From positions 41,178-105,177 of the forward strand of contig JACPEJ010000004.1 of the NCBI GenBank assembly GCA_016183565.1: a stretch of DNA of 64,000 nucleotides, in the 5' to 3' direction. This DNA comes from Candidatus Blackburnbacteria bacterium. GTDB lineage: Bacteria > Patescibacteriota > Microgenomatia > UBA8517 > UBA10165. A model generated the notes under the pieces. That model did no database searches and was not told where the DNA came from. It worked only from the letters and a program-made list of their open reading frames with translations. The position numbers and the translations under genes were made by a program. Each line of letters opens with the position of its first letter. Position 1 is the stretch's first letter. Of the stretch, positions 3,090 through 58,701 are shown in pieces.

Positions 3090-3501
3090 GGAGAACAGGC
3101 TTCACCAGCTTTAGATATTCCTGGGGTTTCTGTTGTGGCACAAAACCTTGAGGTTCCGTGGGCGATTGCGTTTCTTCCTGATAGAAGTATACTGGTCACA
3201 GAACGTCCGGGTCGGGTAAGGATAATTGATAAAGATGGCAATCTTATATTTTCGTTTTGATTCGGATTTAGCAAAGGTAGAGAGAATTAACGAGCATTTT
3301 AAAAAAGAATTCGGTAGGATAAGAGATGTTGTGGTTGGTCCAGACAATATGCTTTATATGACGACAAGCAATAGAGATGGTAGAGGAAATCGTCTCGCGA
3401 ATGATGATACAATAATCTGTGATGATCAAATACAGGTTCTATTTCAAAGAGATGATGGAGCAAAACAAAGAGCTTTTTTCCGCGTTTCAAGAGATTCATG
3501 A
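3090..3501 (+). pseudogene. remnant of PQQ-dependent soluble sugar (glucose/sorbosone) dehydrogenase, YliI family
   Basis: N-terminal fragment (ASPALDIPGVSVVAQNLEVPWAIAFLPDRSILVTERPGRVRIIDKDG) ends at a stop near 3257; a C-terminal-like fragment follows in another frame (VVVGPDNMLYMTTSNRDGRGN...DDTIICDDQIQ). The roughly 250-aa central beta-propeller part is missing. Confidence 0.5.
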
Positions 3502-3754
3502 CAAATATGTAAAAGATCCTAAAAAATGGCAGGATGAGTTTAACAAGCAAGGAAGAAAGGTTTTAGAGATTATTCGCAAGTTTGAGAACAGACTTTGCTC
3601 GCGCACAGAAAGTGGTATGTATGGCAAATACTCGGCAAGTCTCTCGGAAAAGTTCCGAGCTGAGGTAAGAAGGCGGTTTCCTAAAATTGATTTTGTGGGA
3701 GTTAAAATCTCTGATCCTTTTGCGGAAAAACTGAAGCAGATACAACTTGATTAA
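3455..3754 (+). CDS. hypothetical protein
   Basis: ORF with no recognisable motif; start chosen at MMEQNKELF because the upstream part overlaps the dehydrogenase remnant. Confidence 0.3.
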   Translation: MEQNKELFSAFQEIHDKYVKDPKKWQDEFNKQGRKVLEIIRKFENRLCSRTESGMYGKYSASLSEKFRAEVRRRFPKIDFVGVKISDPFAEKLKQIQLD

Positions 3755-5125: not shown

Positions 5126-7386
5126 GAGATTTTAGCTTTTTTCAGAAGCAAAGAATTCGCCACCACAGATGTTGACGAAAAGGCCATTGCTACTGAGGCA
5201 AGAATTGGGCTTAATAAAATTCTAAAAATTGGGTAAAGAGCCCCCATGGCAACAGGTATGAGTATAACATTATACCCGAAAGCCCAAAAAAGATTAGATT
5301 TAATTGTTTTCATTGTTTTTTTAGAAAGCTTTATTGCTCCTACTACTGATCTTAAATCTTTATTAATAAGTGTAATATCTGCAGCCTCTATGGCAACATC
5401 TGTGCCAGTTCCCATTGCGATGCCAACATCAGCAGCAGCTAATGCTGGTGCATCGTTAATACCATCCCCTACCATCGCAACAACCTTTCCTTCAGATTGT
5501 ATCTTTCTTACTTCAGCTTCTTTTTGATCCGGTAATACTTCCGCTAGGACTCTTTTTATTCCAACTTCTTTTGCAATAGCCGTGGCAGTTCTTTTATTAT
5601 CTCCCGTAATCATAGCAACCTCGATATCTAATTTTTCAAGGGCTTTAACTCCTTCTTTTGCAGAATCTTTCAGTGTGTCAGCAACTGCTATCAATCCTAC
5701 AACTTTTCCTTTAAGTGCTAGGATCATAACAGTCTTTCCTTCACTTTCCAGCCTTGCAAGGGGACGCCTTGCAGGGCTAGTGTCGACTTTTTCTTTCTCC
5801 ATTAACCGGGTGTTCCCCAGTAGCACGCAATCCCCATGTACTTTGCCTTCTACGCCGTGCCCAGGTATGGCCCTAAACCCTTCGACTTTACTCAGAACAA
5901 GATTCTCTTCCTCAGCTTTAGTAACAATTGCTTCGGCAAGGGAATGTTCGGAGCCTTTTTCGATAGATGCTGCTAACTGTAGGATAGTTTGTAGGTTGTA
6001 GGTTGTAGGTTGTAGGGGCATTACATCTGTCACCTTCGGCTTTCCTTGTGTCAAAGTTCCGGTTTTGTCAAAAATAATTGTCTTAACTTTATGGGCTGTT
6101 TCTAAACTTTCCGCGTCTTTTATTAAAATTCCCTGTTCAGCACCTTTTCCAGTGCCAACCATAATAGCAGTAGGAGTCGCAAGACCCATTGCACAAGGAC
6201 AGGCGATAATAAGAACCGCAACTGTGTTCAGAAGTGCAAATAAAAGTGCAGGTTGAGGGCCAAAGTCATACCAAAGCACAAACGTGGTAGTTGCGAGTAT
6301 TATCACTACTGGTACAAAGTAGGAAGAAATAAGGTCAACTAGTTTTTGAATAGGAGCTTTGCTTGCTTGAGCTTCTTCAACAAGTCTTATGATTTGCGAA
6401 AGCATGGTTTCCATCCCCACTTTAGTGGCTTTATATGTAAATGTTCCGGTTTTATTTATAGTTCCTCCGATAACTGTATCCCCTTTTAACTTGTCGACAG
6501 GAATACTTTCCCCTGTAACCATTGATTCATCAATTGAGGACTCGCCATCTAAGATTGTTCCATCAACTGGTATTTTTTCGCCCGGTCTTACCCGAATAAT
6601 ATCACCAAGCTCAACTTCTCCTATTGGTACATCGACCTCAACTTTTCCCCTAAGAACTTTTGCTGTTTTGGCTTGGAGACCAATGAGTTTTCTTATTGCC
6701 TCTGAAGTGCCAGCGCGGGCTTTTGCTTCAAAATATCTACCTAAAAGAATTAGGGCGATAATTATGACCGGAACATCAAAATATGGCATAGGCTTAATTC
6801 CCAGTGCTTCGACTGTTTCGGGGAAAATAGTCACGAATACTGAGTAGCTGTAGGCCATTGTAGTACCAAGGCTCACTAGGGTGTCCATGTTTGCTGTGCG
6901 ATGTTTAAGAGCGGGGATTGCGGCTTTATAAAATTCCAGTCCAACCCAAAATTGGACTATTGAGGCAAGAACTAGTTGCACTAAAAAGTTTTTTAACACA
7001 GAGGGTGCAAAATCCATCAAAAATGGGAAGCTACCCCATAGAATCAAAACACCAGTAGCCAAAGCGAAAGCAACTTTTTTTCTAAGATTATCAAGCTCTT
7101 TCTTTTTTTGTTCTTTTTCTATTTCTGTGTCTTTTGCTGTTTTTTCCAAGAGCGCTTTGTACCCAACTTGAGAAACAGTAGTAATTATTTGCTCATCCGT
7201 GACTTTTTTGGGATCATAAGAAATATTCGCTTTTTCTGTTGCAAAATTTACCTGTGCTTCCCTCACCCCTTCTACTTTTTCCAAAGCACGTTCAATAACT
7301 CTTACGCAAGAAGCACAGTGCATACCTTTAATGAGAAAGGTTGTAGTGAGTAGGTTGTAGTTTTTAGGTTGTAGGTTGTAGGTCAT
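5122..7386 (-). CDS. copA: copper-translocating P1B-type ATPase
   Basis: N-terminal HMA GMHCASC; CPC motif ([19 protein letters not shown]); DKTGTLT phosphorylation site; [10 protein letters not shown] hinge. Confidence 0.9.
5750..5780. repeat. palindromic (ccttgcaagg)x2 element, copy inside copA
   Basis: agccttgcaaggggacgccttgcagggctag; encodes the in-frame insert LARLESEG in CopA. Confidence 0.7.
5989..6017. repeat. tandem heptamer repeat (ggttgta)x4 inside copA
   Basis: tgtaggttgtaggttgtaggttgtagg; translated in-frame as [13 protein letters not shown] in CopA. Confidence 0.7.
7339..7360. repeat. left 22-bp inverted repeat flanking the IVS-protein cassette
   Basis: ggttgtagtgagtaggttgtag; perfect reverse complement of 7752..7773. 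Confidence 0.75.
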
Positions 7387-55588: not shown

Positions 55589-55762
55589 CTATTTCAGCTT
55601 CTGAGTTTCGCGGTGCTCCGTGTGTTGGCGGCACTTTTTGCAGAATTTGTTAAGTGTTAGTTTCCCTTCTGTATTGGTTTTGTTCTTTTCGGTTATATAG
55701 TTTGCAGTCTTGCAAACCGAACACACGAGCCCGAACAGTTGTCTTGCTCCTTTTTTAGCCAT
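55589..55762 (-). CDS. rpmG: 50S ribosomal protein L33
   Basis: hand translation MAKKGARQLFGLVCSVCKTANYITEKNKTNTEGKLTLNKFCKKCRQHTEHRETQKLK; two CxxC pairs of the L33 zinc ribbon. Confidence 0.7.
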   Translation of the reverse strand: MAKKGARQLFGLVCSVCKTANYITEKNKTNTEGKLTLNKFCKKCRQHTEHRETQKLK

Positions 55763-55786
55763 CTTTTACTCCTTTCTACTTGCTGA

Positions 55787-55857
55787 GCCTGGAGGGAGGA
55801 TTGAACTCCCGGCCTCTTTCTTACCATGAAAGCGTTCTCCCACTGAACTATCCAGGC
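55787..55857 (-). tRNA. tRNA-Thr (anticodon GGU)
   Basis: cloverleaf read by hand: acceptor gcctgga/tccaggc; D-arm gttc-agtggga-gaac; anticodon stem ctttc/gaaag with loop atGGTaa; T-arm gggag-ttcaatc-ctccc. Confidence 0.75.
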
Positions 55858-55906
55858 AATTCTTTTGATTTTGCCAAAATTGCGAGTCAATTTTTAATTC
55901 GATGAG

Positions 55907-55990
55907 TGCTGGGAGAGGGATTCGAACCCCCGAAGGCATATGCCACCTGATTTACAGTCAGGCTGGTTTGGCCGCTTCCAATATCCCAGC
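55907..55990 (-). tRNA. tRNA-Tyr (anticodon GUA), type II with long variable arm
   Basis: acceptor gctggga/tcccagc; anticodon stem cctga/tcagg with loop ctGTAaa; variable stem ggcat/atgcc; T-loop ttcgaat. Confidence 0.7.
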
Positions 55991-56785
55991 ATTATTTGTT
56001 AAATTATCTTTAAAACTTAAAAATCTTCCGATGTGTCTTTGGTTACTAAATCGTATTTCGCTGTAAAACTTATTTATATTGTCTCTTCTTGTCAAAAATA
56101 TACTGTAACTAGAAATTCTGGACGGTTTGAAACCAAGTGTTTCCAGTATCCTCCGAGTAGATTTTAACAAATTCTCTGACCGATTGCGGAAAGACATTTG
56201 CATTCCACCCGAAGCTAAAAGATAGACAGACCCATCTGTATCAAAAAATCCTCTTAAAAAAGCCTTCATATACTCTTTGTTTGTCCAAATCCAAGCAGGA
56301 ACATCCACCTGCCCTTTAACCTTATTTGGCATTAAACCCATCTCGAGCAACCATCGGACTATTTTCGTAGATCCGACATAGATAACTTGATAACCTTTTT
56401 TGGTATATATTGCTCGAGGATGGCACTCAAATAATTTCAATATTAACTTTTGTATGAAAGTACAATATTGTTGCTCCTTGTTTCCCAAGTGAACAAGAAC
56501 TTGAGTAGGTGAAATGTGCCCATCTCCAAGCATTATCCCAATAAATTCTGCTAGCTCTGGGGAATATCTAGGCAGCTTAACGGTTAGATTGCTAGAGTTA
56601 TTAAACCCGGGCTTTTTATATCTTTGAGTCGGTATTCGCAAACGAACCAAGCGATCATAAATTGTAGTTTCCGCTAAACCGATCTCTTTGCCAATTTCAC
56701 CTATTGCTTTATTCTTTTTAACGTACAGGTCAACAAGTTCTTTTCGATGCTCATCTTCTTGTTGTTTTGTCCAACGCTTTGCCAT
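55958..56785 (-). CDS. LAGLIDADG-family homing endonuclease (double-motif) with N-terminal HTH
   Basis: two LAGLIDADG motifs (FIGIMLGDGHI and LRGFFDTDGSV); N-terminal HTH (IGKEIGLAETTIYDRL); the last 11 codons overlap the 5' part of tRNA-Tyr. Confidence 0.75.
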   Translation of the reverse strand: MAKRWTKQQEDEHRKELVDLYVKKNKAIGEIGKEIGLAETTIYDRLVRLRIPTQRYKKPGFNNSSNLTVKLPRYSPELAEFIGIMLGDGHISPTQVLVHLGNKEQQYCTFIQKLILKLFECHPRAIYTKKGYQVIYVGSTKIVRWLLEMGLMPNKVKGQVDVPAWIWTNKEYMKAFLRGFFDTDGSVYLLASGGMQMSFRNRSENLLKSTRRILETLGFKPSRISSYSIFLTRRDNINKFYSEIRFSNQRHIGRFLSFKDNLTNNAGILEAAKPA

Positions 56786-56789
56786 TCTG

Positions 56790-56873
56790 AGCCGGAGGAG
56801 GGATTCGAACCCACGAAAACCTTGCGGTCCTTCGCTTTACAAAAGCGCTGCTCTACCACTGAGCTACTCCGGC
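56790..56873 (-). tRNA. tRNA-Thr (anticodon UGU)-like with an unusually long (about 16 nt) variable region
   Basis: acceptor gccggag/ctccggc; D-arm tagctcagtggtagagc; anticodon arm cagcgc-tTTGTaa-agcg aligns with bacterial tRNA-Thr; an extra accgcaaggtt mini-hairpin lies in the variable loop; T-loop ttcgaat. Confidence 0.55.
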
Positions 56874-56965
56874 TTGCGTAACGTAGATTATATCAAACTT
56901 TGGGCTCAAAGGGAATCTCTCGAGAGTGGAAAGAATATGAGGTTTGAAGTATAATTATGTCAGAT

Positions 56966-57036
56966 AGGGCTGTGGTGAAATGGCATCACTGCTGTCTCCA
57001 AAACAGCCATTCCAGGTTCGAATCCTGGCAGCCCTG
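56966..57036 (+). tRNA. tRNA-Trp (anticodon CCA)
   Basis: acceptor agggctg/cagccct; D-arm gtga-aatggca-tcac; anticodon stem gctgt/acagc with loop ctCCAaa; T-arm ccagg-ttcgaat-cctgg. Confidence 0.8.
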
Positions 57037-57280
57037 CATTCCAGGTGCCTTCGGAATTATACTTCGCTTAAAGCTGTGCCACCTGTAAAGTAGAAATGCG
57101 AGGTTAAGGGTGTGTGTCGAGAAAACTCCTCAAGAATAATTTTTTGATAAGGAAAATTCGGCCTTTTAGGGTCTTTTTGAGTTCCTCTATTTGGTAATCC
57201 CAAATCAAGCTCACAAGTTATTGTACATCAAATCGACCACTCAAAGCAAAGAGGGTGACCCTGTAATTACTTGACATTCA

Positions 57281-57309
57281 GTGAACTTTATAGTATACTA
57301 TTGGCTTAG
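57281..57309 (+). promoter_or_regulatory. sigma-70 consensus-like promoter TTGACA-17-TATACT
   Basis: read directly; about 105 bp upstream of the GTG start at 57415, which is preceded by an aaggag RBS. Confidence 0.45.
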
Positions 57310-57414
57310 AGGATGAGATAGTTGGCTGTCCGCAAACCAATCAATTCTCAACTTCTCACTACCCGCAAGGGAGTGAAACTAGCACTTTAAATTGCGGAAG
57401 AAGGAGAACAAGAG

Positions 57415-58101
57415 GTGAAGCTTTTCTGGGCAGTCCTGGTATCCGTTTCGTTGGTGGTCACGACCTTCGGCTCAGCCTCCGCTGACAACAGCAAGGCGAC
57501 CCCGATAGTGCCGCGTGTCGAGCTTTCCATGCCGGTAAGCGTACAGCCCGGCCAGACCGTTGAGGTCCCCGTCGTTGTCCGCACCGCTGGCGTGGCCGTG
57601 GATGTGGGCGAGTTCCTACTTGTCTACCCTGTCGACGCGATCGAGTCCGTCACTTTCAAAGCTGCGGATGGTATCACTACCATCACACAGCCTCGTCGCG
57701 AGGACGAGGGCCTTGGCAAGTTCTACCTGGCCTATGGGGTGTTGGGAGGCACGCTGAAGGATGGTCAAAGGGTGGCAACGATCAAGGTCGCACTCAAGAA
57801 CAGCCTTCCGGCCACAACCATCACACTGCAGCTTCAGCGGAACAACCTGGCCCACGCCGGCATGCCTATTTCGCAAGCCCCTGACACGACGTATACCATC
57901 AGTGTGAGGCAGCTCCTGCTGGGTGATGCGAACGGCGACGGCGTCGTGGACCTTATTGACTTTTCGATCATGCTCGGGTCTTTCGGCGTCTGCAAGGGGC
58001 AGACCGCCTACAATCCGCAGGCCGACTTCAGTCGGAGCGGGTGCGTCAACACCGAAGACTTCTCGCTCTTGAGGAGCAATTTCGGCCGTAAGCAGGCGTA
58101 A
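57415..58101 (+). CDS. secreted cohesin-like / dockerin-domain protein (GC-rich island)
   Basis: signal peptide; beta-rich middle region; C-terminal dockerin-type Ca-binding repeats (LGDANGDGVVDLIDFSIML ... ADFSRSGCVNTEDFSLLRSNFG); about 60% GC. Confidence 0.55.
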   Translation: MKLFWAVLVSVSLVVTTFGSASADNSKATPIVPRVELSMPVSVQPGQTVEVPVVVRTAGVAVDVGEFLLVYPVDAIESVTFKAADGITTITQPRREDEGLGKFYLAYGVLGGTLKDGQRVATIKVALKNSLPATTITLQLQRNNLAHAGMPISQAPDTTYTISVRQLLLGDANGDGVVDLIDFSIMLGSFGVCKGQTAYNPQADFSRSGCVNTEDFSLLRSNFGRKQA

Positions 58102-58404
58102 AGCCCTTCTTCCACAAGTATACAAAGGCACCGTGTTCAGATACCAGTCGGTATCTGATTGTGACAATGACGTCACCACGGTGCCTTTTCTTTTGGTTCT
58201 TTTCTTTACTAACACAAAACAATTCCTTAAGTGAATTCTCAAAATTACACTACACTCCTACGTAGGAGTGTAGTGTGTTCAATTAAATATATGAATAAAC
58301 TTATATGTTACAGGTGATATTTTGTGATACGTTATATCTCCTTGCCTCGCTTGACAAATAAAAGCACAAATGTATACTTAAATATACATTCAAGTGCATA
58401 TATT

Positions 58405-58701
58405 ATGAACTACATGACTACAACTGAATTACGAACAAAGACAAAGGAACTTATCCAAGCTCTCAAGGATGGTGAGACTGTGGAGTTGATTCATAGATCC
58501 AAAATCATTGGAGAGTTTAGGCCAGCTGAAGAAGAAGCGCCAGTAATACGAGACCTAGAGAAGTTTGAAAAATTCCTTGCTGGCATAGATCCTGGTGAAG
58601 ACACAACCTACAGAGAAAGAGAAAGACGCTATAGAAAGCATCTTGAGGGAAAGTATGGCAAGGGTCTTTCTGGACACCAACATATTTATAGACTACGTTG
58701 A
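58405..58701 (+). CDS. Phd/YefM-type antitoxin
   Basis: MTTTELRTKTKELIQALKDGETVELIHRSKIIGEF matches the Phd/YefM N-terminal fold; overlaps the downstream PIN gene. Confidence 0.5.
   Translation: MNYMTTTELRTKTKELIQALKDGETVELIHRSKIIGEFRPAEEEAPVIRDLEKFEKFLAGIDPGEDTTYRERERRYRKHLEGKYGKGLSGHQHIYRLR

Follow-up and report, generated by a model that had tools for sequence, protein, structure and literature searches.

What is an intact homing-endonuclease gene (HEG) doing among the tRNA genes of a bacterial chromosome, and which DNA would its product cut? This question is raised by a 64,000-nucleotide stretch of Candidatus Blackburnbacteria DNA, referred to here as the window, in which an ORF follows one tRNA gene and runs into the next. 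A sequence-only reading had proposed that this ORF is a free-standing, double-motif LAGLIDADG gene inserted recently into a tRNA cluster, with tRNA-Tyr as its terminator and perhaps its homing target. The answer that we favor, and which we regard as probable though far from assured, is that the enzyme homes into tRNA-Tyr and rebuilds the 5′ part of this tRNA.

An intact endonuclease gene between tRNA genes

ARAGORN and Rfam placed four tRNAs at the locus, in agreement with the tRNA order and the divergent tRNA-Trp that had been read from the sequence (Table 1). The tRNA-Thr(UGU) that precedes the endonuclease gene scores 60.9 bits and carries an unusual extra variable arm, a 15-nt insertion in its variable region (Rfam). 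The endonuclease ATG lies 4 nt (CAGA) past the discriminator base of this tRNA, not 5 nt as first counted. At the other end of the gene, the tRNA boundaries confirmed that the ORF overlaps tRNA-Tyr. This overlap had been described as 11 codons provided by the acceptor and D-arm; it does comprise 10 sense codons plus TGA, but the TGA falls at the start of the anticodon loop and the overlap thus extends past the D-arm. The GILEAAKPA tail of the protein is tRNA-Tyr sequence translated. In relatives, tRNA-Trp follows rpmG on the same strand; in the window it is divergent.

Table 1 Features of the endonuclease locus (window positions) and two types of HEG-less tRNA-Tyr gene from relatives
Feature	Position	Strand	Basis or remark
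tRNA-Trp(CCA)	56966..57036	+	Divergent from cluster; ARAGORN and Rfam tRNA models
Putative extended -10 promoter of the tRNA-Thr(UGU) operon, TTTGATATAAT	56887..56897	-	Inference, read from sequence
tRNA-Thr(UGU), 84 nt	56790..56873	-	Left border of endonuclease gene; ARAGORN and Rfam
LAGLIDADG homing-endonuclease gene, free-standing, 275 aa	55958..56785	-	ORF, Pfam, homologues
N-terminal three-helix HTH domain, aa 7-48	56642..56767	-	AlphaFold2 model
LAGLIDADG motif 1, AEFIGIMLGDG, predicted catalytic D88	56519..56551	-	Homologue alignment
LAGLIDADG motif 2, AFLRGFFDTDG, predicted catalytic D184	56231..56263	-	Alignment, Pfam
Overlap of ORF 3′ end with tRNA-Tyr positions 1-33	55958..55990	-	10 codons and TGA
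tRNA-Tyr(GUA), intact, probable homing target	55907..55990	-	ARAGORN and Rfam, 48.8 bits
tRNA-Tyr D-arm, ATTGGAAGCGGCCAAACCAG, candidate resistant half-site of cassette	55963..55982	-	Comparison with L269
tRNA-Thr(GGU), co-directional	55786..55857	-	ARAGORN and Rfam
rpmG (L33), last gene of presumed operon	55589..55762	-	Pfam 2e-18
L269-type HEG-less tRNA-Tyr gene			Sequence begins GCTGGGATACCGAAGTGGTCAACCGGGCCTGACTGTAAATCAGG
L083-type HEG-less tRNA-Tyr gene			D-arm GGCAGAGTGGTCAATTGCA

An Rfam search of positions 54500-58500 (E ≤ 1) found no group I or group II intron and no RNA family other than tRNAs, and the endonuclease gene is therefore free-standing. An intron- or intein-encoded endonuclease was ruled out on the same ground, and also because the gene starts at an ATG of its own and is flanked by complete tRNAs.

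The ORF is an intact gene for a protein with an N-terminal HTH domain and a double-LAGLIDADG core. Its product is listed at NCBI as hypothetical protein HYU80_04615 of Candidatus Blackburnbacteria, and its N-terminus (MAKRW) fits that of the family (MAxRW). Both motifs of a monomeric double-motif enzyme are present (FIGIMLGDG with D88 and FLRGFFDTDG with D184), Pfam LAGLIDADG_3 (PF14528) matches residues 171-244 at 4e-15, and 539 homologues were found; together, these results establish a real gene rather than a chance ORF and uphold the initial assignment. Among 23 sequences with 46-56% identity to the window protein, E80, G83, G87, D88 and G89 are invariant in motif 1, and L177, G179, D182, T183, D184 and G185 in motif 2. 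The window protein keeps all of the invariant and nearly all of the near-invariant family residues. Its AlphaFold2 model (pLDDT 88.6) contains two alpha-beta-beta-alpha-beta-beta-alpha units, the order of secondary structure expected for the LAGLIDADG fold, behind three HTH helices (residues 7-23, 28-35 and 39-48) and a linker (residues 49-75). Some homologues match Pfam HTH_7 (PF02796), and there is a weak HTH match to PDB 2lvs.

Comparison with intron- and intein-encoded families, which had been suggested at the outset, located the closest known structures. Foldseek returned the TliVMA intein endonuclease domain, I-Tsp061I (TM 0.73) and I-DmoI as top matches, with a probability of 1.00 to I-Tsp061I, I-DmoI, PI-SceI and I-OnuI. 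The I-Tsp061I, I-DmoI and VMA intein domains are the best matches in both sequence and structure, and like the window protein they are monomers of two domains with a pair of catalytic acidic residues; however, their identity does not exceed ~22%, an N-terminal HTH is missing from them and they reside in rRNA introns or inteins. Enzymes of the monomeric double-motif class make site-specific double-strand cuts in long targets (~20 bp). We infer that the window protein would be such a nuclease and would be mobile; its candidate substrate is the HEG-less tRNA-Tyr gene of the L269/L086 type.

Labels currently used in the family are 'hypothetical', 'WhiA' and 'intein/homing endonuclease'. WhiA likewise combines a LAGLIDADG fold with an HTH domain, it is found among the Foldseek matches of the window protein, and some sources give its name to homologues of that protein. 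However, WhiA is distributed universally within a phylum, has the reversed domain order and has lost the catalytic acidic residues, whereas the family described here is patchy and retains them. We rejected WhiA as the identity of the window protein because the HTH is N-terminal, the catalytic Asp residues are invariant and the WhiA-LAGLIDADG model of Pfam matches weakly, at 27 bits and with no single stretch that passes by itself.

A tRNA partner shared across the family

The sequence-only reading had considered this kind of gene unusual in bacterial chromosomes, but relatives are encoded by at least 380 species-level genomes, and together they form a large family of ultra-small bacteria and archaea. 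The genome and metagenome frequencies below are samples from the matches listed, not totals. At 56 of 57 related Patescibacteria loci among the matches listed, the gene adjoins tRNA-Tyr, on the same strand and directly 5′ of it, irrespective of a tRNA-Thr upstream. The gene does lie between tRNA genes, as first read; its partner, though, is specifically tRNA-Tyr. Among the matches listed, the ORF ends between -14 and +38 relative to tRNA-Tyr +1, and in ~40 of 56 homologues it runs into the tRNA, with stops at +15, +31 and +37/38. The overlap is thus a family-wide trait and not the mark of a recent insertion that it had been taken for. The stop at +37/38 is built from the anticodon GUA and A37, and the tails of homologues (RRSDSGYSRRL, VGTQAVNEDAL and others) are tRNA-Tyr translated in different frames.

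More distant relatives adjoin other tRNAs: 19 of 21 loci among the matches listed lie directly 5′ of tRNA-Ser(CGA) (12) or tRNA-Ser(GCU) (1) in bacteria, or of tRNA-Gln (6) in DPANN archaea. We therefore lean toward the view, with some reservation, that the endonuclease belongs to a family of free-standing cassettes that are each specific for one tRNA gene. The closest non-self homologue of the window protein is 56% identical (rpmG has 86% homologues); it is encoded on L274, where the ATG follows tRNA-Thr(UGU) by 3 nt in the same layout as in the window. On L084, tRNA-Thr(GGU) is entered by a partial ORF; this ORF showed no significant similarity to the family and was set aside. A phage vehicle for the endonuclease is unsupported by the content of IMG/VR, where all relatives have at most 40% identity and none belongs to the tRNA-Tyr family (44-56% identical). 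The literature searched, which lay mostly outside subscription journals, contained no account of LAGLIDADG genes that abut tRNAs in CPR or DPANN.

The presence of the gene is polymorphic at one locus among relatives. With rpmG as the anchor, six of six Microgenomates relatives were found to be HEG-less; L083, L086, L265, L269 and L272 provide HEG-less alleles of the Thr(UGU)-Tyr spacer, and the spacer of the sixth, L085, contains two tRNA-Tyr 5′ fragments of two different types. For one tRNA-Tyr D-arm type, 11 of 68 metagenomic loci listed (~16%) carry the HEG. In SRR12113422 and SRR12113430, Logan contigs end at the tRNAs on either side of the gene. Signs of a homing cycle are present, though few: L059 is a decayed copy of which only residues 109-269 are left, and L085 is a scarred empty site. 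A purely selfish element would not usually be intact in nearly all of its copies, as this family is; moreover, HEG clusters broadly track host groups.

tRNA remnants and the probable location of the target

Most copies of the gene are preceded by a second, partial tRNA. A tRNA-Tyr 5′ fragment that ends at positions 22-27 lies upstream of the ATG at 34 of 54 loci among those listed, versus 3 of 188 control windows and 1 of 54 shuffles. This remnant sits ~30 nt ahead of the ATG and ends after the D-arm, and in some cases (L057, L031, L047) it includes the acceptor strand. The same architecture recurs in the tRNA-Ser and tRNA-Gln subfamilies, where the remnant likewise ends after the D-arm. Against the idea of a displaced tRNA segment, the tRNA that adjoins the gene at L032 has a D-arm similar to the remnant type. 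No remnant above noise was found upstream of HEG-less type-A tRNA-Tyr genes.

The remnant overlaps the -35 box region of the cassette promoter. Exactly 6 nt before the ATG there is a TAnnnT hexamer at 41 of 64 loci listed (background, ~3 per offset), while a Shine-Dalgarno-like motif was seen at 1 of 64. The remnant and the promoter that follows it suggest a leaderless mRNA and a cassette that inserts after the D-arm with a replacement 5′ segment. Very distant hosts share the remnant sequence AGAGTGGTCAATTGCA, and this conservation fits a role as promoter or operator at least as well as it fits a decaying exon piece. I-TevI reportedly represses its own gene by binding to an operator within the promoter region that is similar in sequence to the homing site (Edgell et al. 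2004); by analogy, a tRNA remnant over the -35 box could serve as an autorepression operator.

These upstream features bear on a different explanation, in which the protein is a domesticated LAGLIDADG/HTH factor that binds DNA or RNA in the manner of WhiA, acts in tRNA-Tyr expression or maturation, is inherited vertically with the tRNA and is often lost, and uses the upstream motif as its operator. The motif is kept beyond what a dead fragment would lead one to expect and overlaps the promoter; moreover, the protein has an HTH domain and WhiA among its structural matches, almost every copy is intact and in the same position, and the HEG clusters broadly match host groups. We nevertheless consider this explanation quite improbable, because both catalytic Asp residues are invariant, the HTH is N-terminal rather than C-terminal as in WhiA, and the gene is missing from close relatives and from all but ~16% of the listed loci with one tRNA-Tyr type. 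Sister subfamilies at tRNA-Ser and archaeal tRNA-Gln with the same remnant architecture, the truncated copy (L059) and the scarred empty site (L085) argue against it as well.

No remnant was relied on in the window copy: a 12-nt match at 57231-57242 is weak, with a score of 20 that 3 of 188 control windows also reached. Like its L274 homologue, which also has no remnant, the window gene is fused behind tRNA-Thr(UGU), and it has no promoter of its own. The window copy thus offers no direct evidence for the insertion point. Clean borders were also sought in near-isogenic pairs and not obtained; L109 and L125/L102 are 84% identical in clpB, yet the HEG replaces a 188-aa ORF instead of being simply inserted, and other pairs are too diverged.

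Relative to the tRNA-Tyr of HEG-less L269, the window tRNA-Tyr is identical at positions 1-9 and at 56 of 58 positions from 27 to 84, and the D-arm differs by 9 substitutions and 1 indel, with compensatory changes in the stem. Outside the D-arm the two are 97% identical, compared with 66-75% for the neighbouring tRNAs. The D-arms of tRNA-Tyr fell into at least six types. As had been suspected, tRNA-Tyr is very probably the homing target. The Thr-Tyr spacer, in which HEG-less alleles had been expected to define the homing site, does have such alleles, but comparison of the loci favors a target within the tRNA itself, where the D-arm meets the anticodon stem.

Immunity through differences within the tRNA was rejected as a general rule, since type-A HEG-bearing and HEG-less tRNAs can be identical. 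HEG-bearing L116 and HEG-less L113, for instance, have one tRNA-Tyr type, and their 85-nt tRNAs are the same. Such HEG-less alleles cannot be both a target and unlike the protected allele; instead, they would need to be resistant and to have arisen through HEG loss or through conversion. This identity could instead mean that only the 5′ flank distinguishes HEG-bearing from HEG-less alleles, as expected if an intergenic homing endonuclease like T4 SegB inserted just upstream of tRNA-Tyr +1 and cut the spacer or the 5′ border of the tRNA, with the fragments arising by sloppy repair or promoter mimicry. In keeping with this alternative, the ORF end at tRNA +1 is the only fixed border, and the copies in the window and on L274 fit neatly between two tRNAs, with no remnant. 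However, HEG-less tRNA-Tyr genes are preceded by unrelated promoters that share no conserved half-site, the remnants of three subfamilies, each at a different tRNA, stop at the same position behind the D-arm, and the divergence between window and L269 tRNA-Tyr is confined to the D-arm. We thus regard an intergenic target as unlikely.

T4 SegB does resemble the window gene in being a free-standing endonuclease gene between tRNA genes that targets the tRNA region of HEG-less relatives; its flanking tRNA genes are co-converted and its target is listed as a tRNA intergenic region (PMC2988022). SegB, however, is a GIY-YIG enzyme of a phage, whereas the window protein matches only LAGLIDADG in Pfam and is encoded on a cellular chromosome. 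Unlike the cassettes proposed here, SegB has no rebuilt tRNA segment, no remnant and no overlap of ORF and tRNA.

Proposed homing cycle and its implications

We propose that the enzyme, an HTH domain joined to a monomeric double-LAGLIDADG core, would cut a HEG-less tRNA-Tyr gene near the junction of the D-arm and the anticodon stem, at approximately positions 22-27, and that repair would copy the cassette from a HEG-bearing allele. The cassette would carry at its end a second tRNA 5′ segment, with acceptor strand and D-arm, so that an intact tRNA-Tyr would be restored directly behind the ORF, and the displaced original 5′ segment would remain upstream as the remnant. A rebuilt D-arm unlike the one that was cut would confer resistance on the invaded allele. 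In canonical cassettes, such as those of L013 and L057, the remnant would supply the -35 box and a -10 box 6 nt before the ATG would yield a leaderless mRNA.

Expression would differ in the window and on L274. With an ATG 3-4 nt behind tRNA-Thr(UGU) and no promoter between them, the gene is presumably transcribed with the tRNA operon, and tRNA processing would release the mRNA. In the window, the only plausible driver would be TTTGATATAAT, whose putative -10 hexamer ends 13 nt ahead of tRNA-Thr(UGU) +1; a promoter-consensus scan did not flag it because it has no -35 element. The same scan flagged no sigma-70 promoter for tRNA-Tyr inside the window ORF. tRNA-Tyr, earlier suggested to act as the terminator of the gene, is more likely an RNase P processing site. 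If RNase P cleaved at tRNA-Tyr +1, the window ORF would lose its stop codon, and expression may be limited as a result.

An ORF with neither its own promoter nor a Shine-Dalgarno sequence, and with its stop inside a tRNA, might also be an inactive relic, once mobile and now stranded, that stays open only by lying in an essential tRNA/rpmG transcript; its nearest homologue is 56% identical and the relatives examined do not have the gene. Retention of the invariant and nearly all near-invariant residues argues against a relic, as does the promoter-less layout, which is common to the 56% homologue on L274 and has therefore persisted under constraint. We consider a relic very unlikely.

Two other groups of elements share parts of the cassette design. 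Free-standing LAGLIDADG ORFs of fungal mitochondria leave partial gene duplications, such as those of the atp6 and cob C-termini, and a replacement end keeps the gene functional (PMC6279837). The endonuclease family, the replacement end and the displaced partial duplicate are as in the cassettes, but the fungal host gene is protein-coding and duplicated at its 3′ end, whereas here a tRNA of CPR and DPANN hosts is affected at its 5′ end. CPR bacteria also have LAGLIDADG endonucleases in the introns and insertion sequences of their rRNA genes (PMC11270868; PMC11809585); the host phylum is the same, and the target is again a highly conserved stable-RNA gene. Those endonucleases lie inside rRNA genes and are removed from the RNA, in contrast to the free-standing gene beside an uninterrupted tRNA described here; the word tRNA is absent from the main text of PMC11270868.

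In archaea, tRNA genes that are split or contain an intron are interrupted at 25/26. A breakpoint at ~22-27 would be close to this position, and cassettes that break a tRNA gene behind its D-arm and exchange the 5′ segment could thus be one route to fragmented tRNA genes. We put this forward tentatively, as a rather unlikely extension of the cassette model, together with the suggestion that the sub-lineage of the window copy has a 'tRNA-punctuated' mRNA in a bacterial tRNA operon, leaderless and in some cases lacking a stop codon.

If the cassette model is true, selfish DNA would occupy an essential stable-RNA gene in a mode different from introns, inteins and the use of phage intergenic regions. 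The model would explain odd tRNA fragments and rearrangements near tRNA clusters in CPR and DPANN, and it would give a cause for the unusual variability of the tRNA-Tyr D-arm. The family would also offer natural meganucleases whose scaffolds are related and whose tRNA-gene targets differ, and the proposed link between mobile elements and fragmented tRNA genes would become directly testable.

Locus layout and the predicted endonuclease

A 275-aa LAGLIDADG gene lying between tRNA genes and overlapping tRNA-Tyr, as the sequence-only reading had described, was upheld by ARAGORN, Rfam and Pfam, and the tRNA scan placed tRNA-Tyr where the overlap requires it. The ATG lies 4 nt (CAGA), rather than the 5 nt first read, past the discriminator base of tRNA-Thr(UGU), and tRNA-Tyr positions 1-33 provide the final 10 sense codons and the TGA stop of the open reading frame (ORF). 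No intron or other RNA family was detectable around the ORF with Rfam. NCBI lists the identical protein, from a Candidatus Blackburnbacteria MAG, as "hypothetical protein".

Features of the endonuclease locus (window positions)
Feature	Position	Strand	Remark
rpmG	55589-55762	-	after the tRNAs
tRNA-Thr(GGU)	55786-55857	-	ARAGORN and Rfam tRNA model agree
tRNA-Tyr(GUA)	55907-55990	-	ARAGORN and Rfam tRNA model agree
endonuclease ORF, 275 aa	55958-56785	-	
tRNA-Thr(UGU)	56790-56873	-	ARAGORN and Rfam tRNA model agree
tRNA-Trp(CCA)	56966-57036	+	ARAGORN and Rfam tRNA model agree

The protein matched LAGLIDADG_3 in Pfam (4e-15). Alignment with 23 homologues (46-56% identical to it) revealed 41 invariant columns, including G87-D88-G89 and D182-T183-D184-G185, which are both LAGLIDADG motifs with the metal-binding Asp residues. 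An AlphaFold2 model (pLDDT 88.6) placed a three-helix HTH at the N-terminus (aa 7-48), joined by a linker to two alpha-beta-beta-alpha-beta-beta-alpha domains. The comparison with intron- and intein-encoded families that had been suggested gave, by sequence and fold, an archaeal VMA intein endonuclease domain and the rRNA-intron enzymes I-Tsp061I and I-DmoI as the best PDB matches, with WhiA as a more remote one. Motif and fold are those of a LAGLIDADG homing endonuclease, the gene qualifies as neither intron-encoded nor intein-encoded, and the protein carries no sequence signs of nuclease inactivation. We file it as a homing endonuclease gene (HEG), with nuclease activity predicted from motifs and fold. 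Its best non-self homologue is 56% identical; L33 homologues reach 86%.

A tRNA partner and a tRNA remnant across the family

Searching 1.84 billion representative proteins with a profile gave 455 clusters at E<=1e-30, and relatives turned up in at least 380 genomes when one genome per species was scanned. Among the matches listed, tRNA-Tyr(GUA) lay directly downstream on the same strand in 56 of 57 full-length loci examined, the lone exception being a contig end, and in 16 of these tRNA-Tyr loci a tRNA-Thr(UGU) gene preceded the ORF in the same orientation. Among these same listed matches, ORFs ended from 14 nt before to 38 nt after the tRNA-Tyr +1, and ~40 of 56 entered the tRNA, with stops at +15, +31 or +37/38, the last built from the anticodon GUA and A37. 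The variable C-terminal tails of the protein alignment are translated tRNA. The 3' overlap had been taken as a sign of recent insertion; it is a property of the whole family and therefore no evidence for recent arrival. The same scan listed 21 more distant relatives (30-41% identity, N-terminal domain unmatched), and 19 of these likewise lay directly 5' of a tRNA gene: tRNA-Ser(CGA) in 12 bacterial loci, tRNA-Ser(GCU) in one bacterial locus and tRNA-Gln(UUG/CUG) in six loci of DPANN archaea, with no downstream tRNA detected in two.

Most tRNA-Tyr loci also carry (G)GYAGAGTGGTCAATTGCA, the tRNA-Tyr D-arm, ~30 nt upstream of the ATG, and several of these remnants include the acceptor strand (e.g., GCGTCGGTGGCAGAGTGGTCAATTGC in L057 and GCGTCGGTACTCAAGCGGTCAACGA in L031, two homologous loci). 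Scored against a 27-nt tRNA-Tyr 5' sequence, 34 of 54 loci reached at least 20 within 100 nt before the ATG, versus 3/188 control windows and 1/54 shuffles. Remnants always end at tRNA positions 22-27 and never include the anticodon arm. Past the remnant, ~17 nt lead to a TAnnnT hexamer, which exactly 6 nt separate from the ATG; the hexamer occupies this offset in 41/64 loci versus ~3 at other offsets, and only 1/64 has a Shine-Dalgarno-like motif. The remnant end TTGCAA is placed like a -35 box and, with the hexamer, would give a leaderless mRNA. The same plan recurs in the Ser subfamily (GGAGRGGTGCSTGAGCGGTTGA, then TTGAC as -35 box and a -10 box) and in the archaeal Gln subfamily (...TAGTGGTCAA, then a TTTATATA box). 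In nearly all loci the remnant D-arm differs from that of the intact downstream tRNA. Clusters of related endonucleases are linked to several D-arm types, and each D-arm type to several clusters.

Within Patescibacteria (HEG-bearing loci L003-L058 and L092-L164), the tRNA-Tyr D-arm is strikingly variable, with at least 6 types, some of which have D-loop alterations; in the same genes the anticodon loop and T-arm are conserved. In the ORFs of three loci (L018, L050 and L052), in-frame TGA codons occur at positions W5, W165 and W145; W5 and W165 are invariant in the family and W145 is W in 56/63 other sequences. L052 also carries a Trp-like tRNA with anticodon UCA (5134-5207). The Patescibacteria MAGs behind these loci appear to decode UGA as Trp, not as stop, nor as Gly as in Gracilibacteria.

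HEG-less alleles and a proposed mechanism

Using rpmG homologues as anchors to locate relatives of the window genome, we found the HEG in none of six related Microgenomates lineages. The HEG-less Thr(UGU)-Tyr spacers that the sequence-only reading had recommended seeking were present in these six, with lengths of 27 nt (L083), 2 nt (L086), 4 nt (L265/L266), 86 nt (L269/L270), 2 nt (L272) and 196 nt (L085). The L085 spacer looks like an emptied site, as it holds a fragment of the tRNA-Thr 3' end together with two tRNA-Tyr 5' fragments that differ in D-arm type. In a metagenome scan with D-arm type TCGGATAGYGGCTATTCCAG, 68 of the tRNA-Tyr loci listed had 100 nt or more of sequence upstream, and 11 of these had the HEG; the rest had an ordinary promoter upstream of tRNA-Tyr. 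Homologous locus L059 (2562-4489) keeps only aa 109-269 of the endonuclease, in a 5'-truncated gene directly before tRNA-Tyr. Upstream of this gene, a 320-aa ORF bearing a YxDD reverse-transcriptase motif lies on the opposite strand, along with a G+C-rich stretch; they may represent a group II intron or retroelement by which the cassette was disrupted. Viral contigs yielded remote relatives only.

Comparison of the window tRNA-Tyr with that of HEG-less L269 revealed identity at positions 1-9, 56/58 matches at positions 27-84, and 9 substitutions plus 1 indel in the D-arm, some of them compensatory stem changes. Because the D-arm holds nearly all differences, divergence is concentrated in precisely the segment that ends where remnants end. 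Outside it, the two genes are more similar than the genomic background (tRNA-Thr(GGU), 54/72; tRNA-Trp, 47/71). Both features fit a cassette that brings its own D-arm, with co-conversion of the target gene.

The simplest reading of these sequence patterns is a four-step scheme. The endonuclease would cut tRNA genes that lack the HEG, close to where the D-arm meets the anticodon stem; repair would copy the promoter, ORF and replacement tRNA 5' segment; the displaced old 5' segment would remain as the remnant; and the new D-arm would shield the allele from cutting. The short acceptor-strand repeats could later recombine, deleting the HEG and leaving a resistant HEG-less tRNA, which would explain why many HEG-less alleles have a tRNA identical to that of HEG-bearing ones. 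Weak points of this scheme are that we found no clean insertion borders in isogenic pairs, that degenerate HEG copies are few, that locus L032 is an exception, and that the remnant shows conservation, perhaps owing to a promoter or operator role. One main rival is that the gene is a domesticated regulator; the other is that it is an ordinary intergenic SegB-like endonuclease. T4 SegB, too, is encoded among tRNA genes; it is, however, a phage enzyme of the GIY-YIG type whose target is intergenic, whereas the window family is LAGLIDADG. For the cut-and-copy scheme, the closest mechanistic analogue is provided by those LAGLIDADG ORFs of fungal mitochondria that leave atp6 or cob partly duplicated, although these affect the 3' end of protein genes, the mirror of the tRNA 5' case here. 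CPR LAGLIDADG enzymes described to date lie in rRNA insertions (PMC11270868, PMC11809585). We found no description of tRNA-abutting LAGLIDADG genes in CPR or DPANN in the literature, of which full-text coverage was incomplete.

The window copy and its tRNA cluster

In this lineage, the tRNA cluster is a hot spot of rearrangement. When window 54722-57036 is compared with relatives, the stretch between and including tRNA-Thr(UGU) and rpmG proves to be inverted with respect to L083, L086 and L272, in which M50 peptidase, tRNAs, rpmG and tRNA-Trp are all co-oriented, and L084, L085 and L265 have further arrangements. Other small mobile-type genes occupy the cluster in relatives: a 91-aa GIY-YIG ORF between tRNA-Tyr and tRNA-Thr(GGU) in L085 (1773-2048, minus strand), and in L272 a GIY-YIG ORF after tRNA-Trp (3382-3660) and a 23S_rRNA_IVP ORF between tRNA-Thr(GGU) and rpmG (2604-2966). 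A partial ORF at the L084 contig end (1-207) enters tRNA-Thr(GGU), with a TAG stop at tRNA positions 8-10; its similarity to the LAGLIDADG family was not significant, and it may be a different kind of tRNA-abutting gene. The tRNA-Tyr/tRNA-Thr(GGU) spacer of L086 (4750-4836) holds a duplicate tRNA-Tyr 3' end, GTCCCTCCGCCAGCACCA, resembling the kind of scar that integrase-type elements targeting tRNA 3' ends would leave.

The window tRNA-Thr(UGU) has a 12-15-nt extra variable arm (GGACC-GCAA-GGUUU), a class-II-like shape unusual for tRNA-Thr, and a G-A mismatch topping the anticodon stem; in L269, L083, L085 and L086 this tRNA is normal (72-77 nt) and otherwise ~92% identical. Two Logan contigs of the same species (L001 and L002) both break 47 nt past the ORF stop, within tRNA-Tyr, and L002 breaks again 73 nt upstream of the ATG, within tRNA-Thr(UGU). 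These breaks could mean that those samples contain both HEG-bearing and HEG-less strain variants.

The copy in the window represents a derived form. Neither remnant nor promoter precedes its ATG. At 57231-57242 (minus strand), ~445 nt upstream of the ORF and past tRNA-Trp, GAGTGGTCGATT weakly resembles the D-arm of tRNA-Tyr, with TACAAT after it; its score level was also reached in 3/188 control windows, and it may be chance. The sole plausible promoter is a putative extended -10 box, TTTGATATAAT, read by eye before tRNA-Thr(UGU), which a promoter scan did not flag. In the closest homologue, P0002 (locus L274; 56% identical), the ATG lies 3 nt past tRNA-Thr(UGU) and the stop 8 nt before tRNA-Tyr; layouts are similar in L049 (10 nt past tRNA-Thr) and Ser-type L065 (7 nt past tRNA-Arg). 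With ATGs 3-10 nt behind tRNAs, this sub-lineage thus appears to exist as a protein-coding gene that tRNAs "punctuate" and that is transcribed with the operon. Both flanking tRNA genes would serve as homology arms, and the mRNA would be freed by tRNA 3' and 5' processing; RNase P cleavage in the window might even remove the ORF's stop codon.
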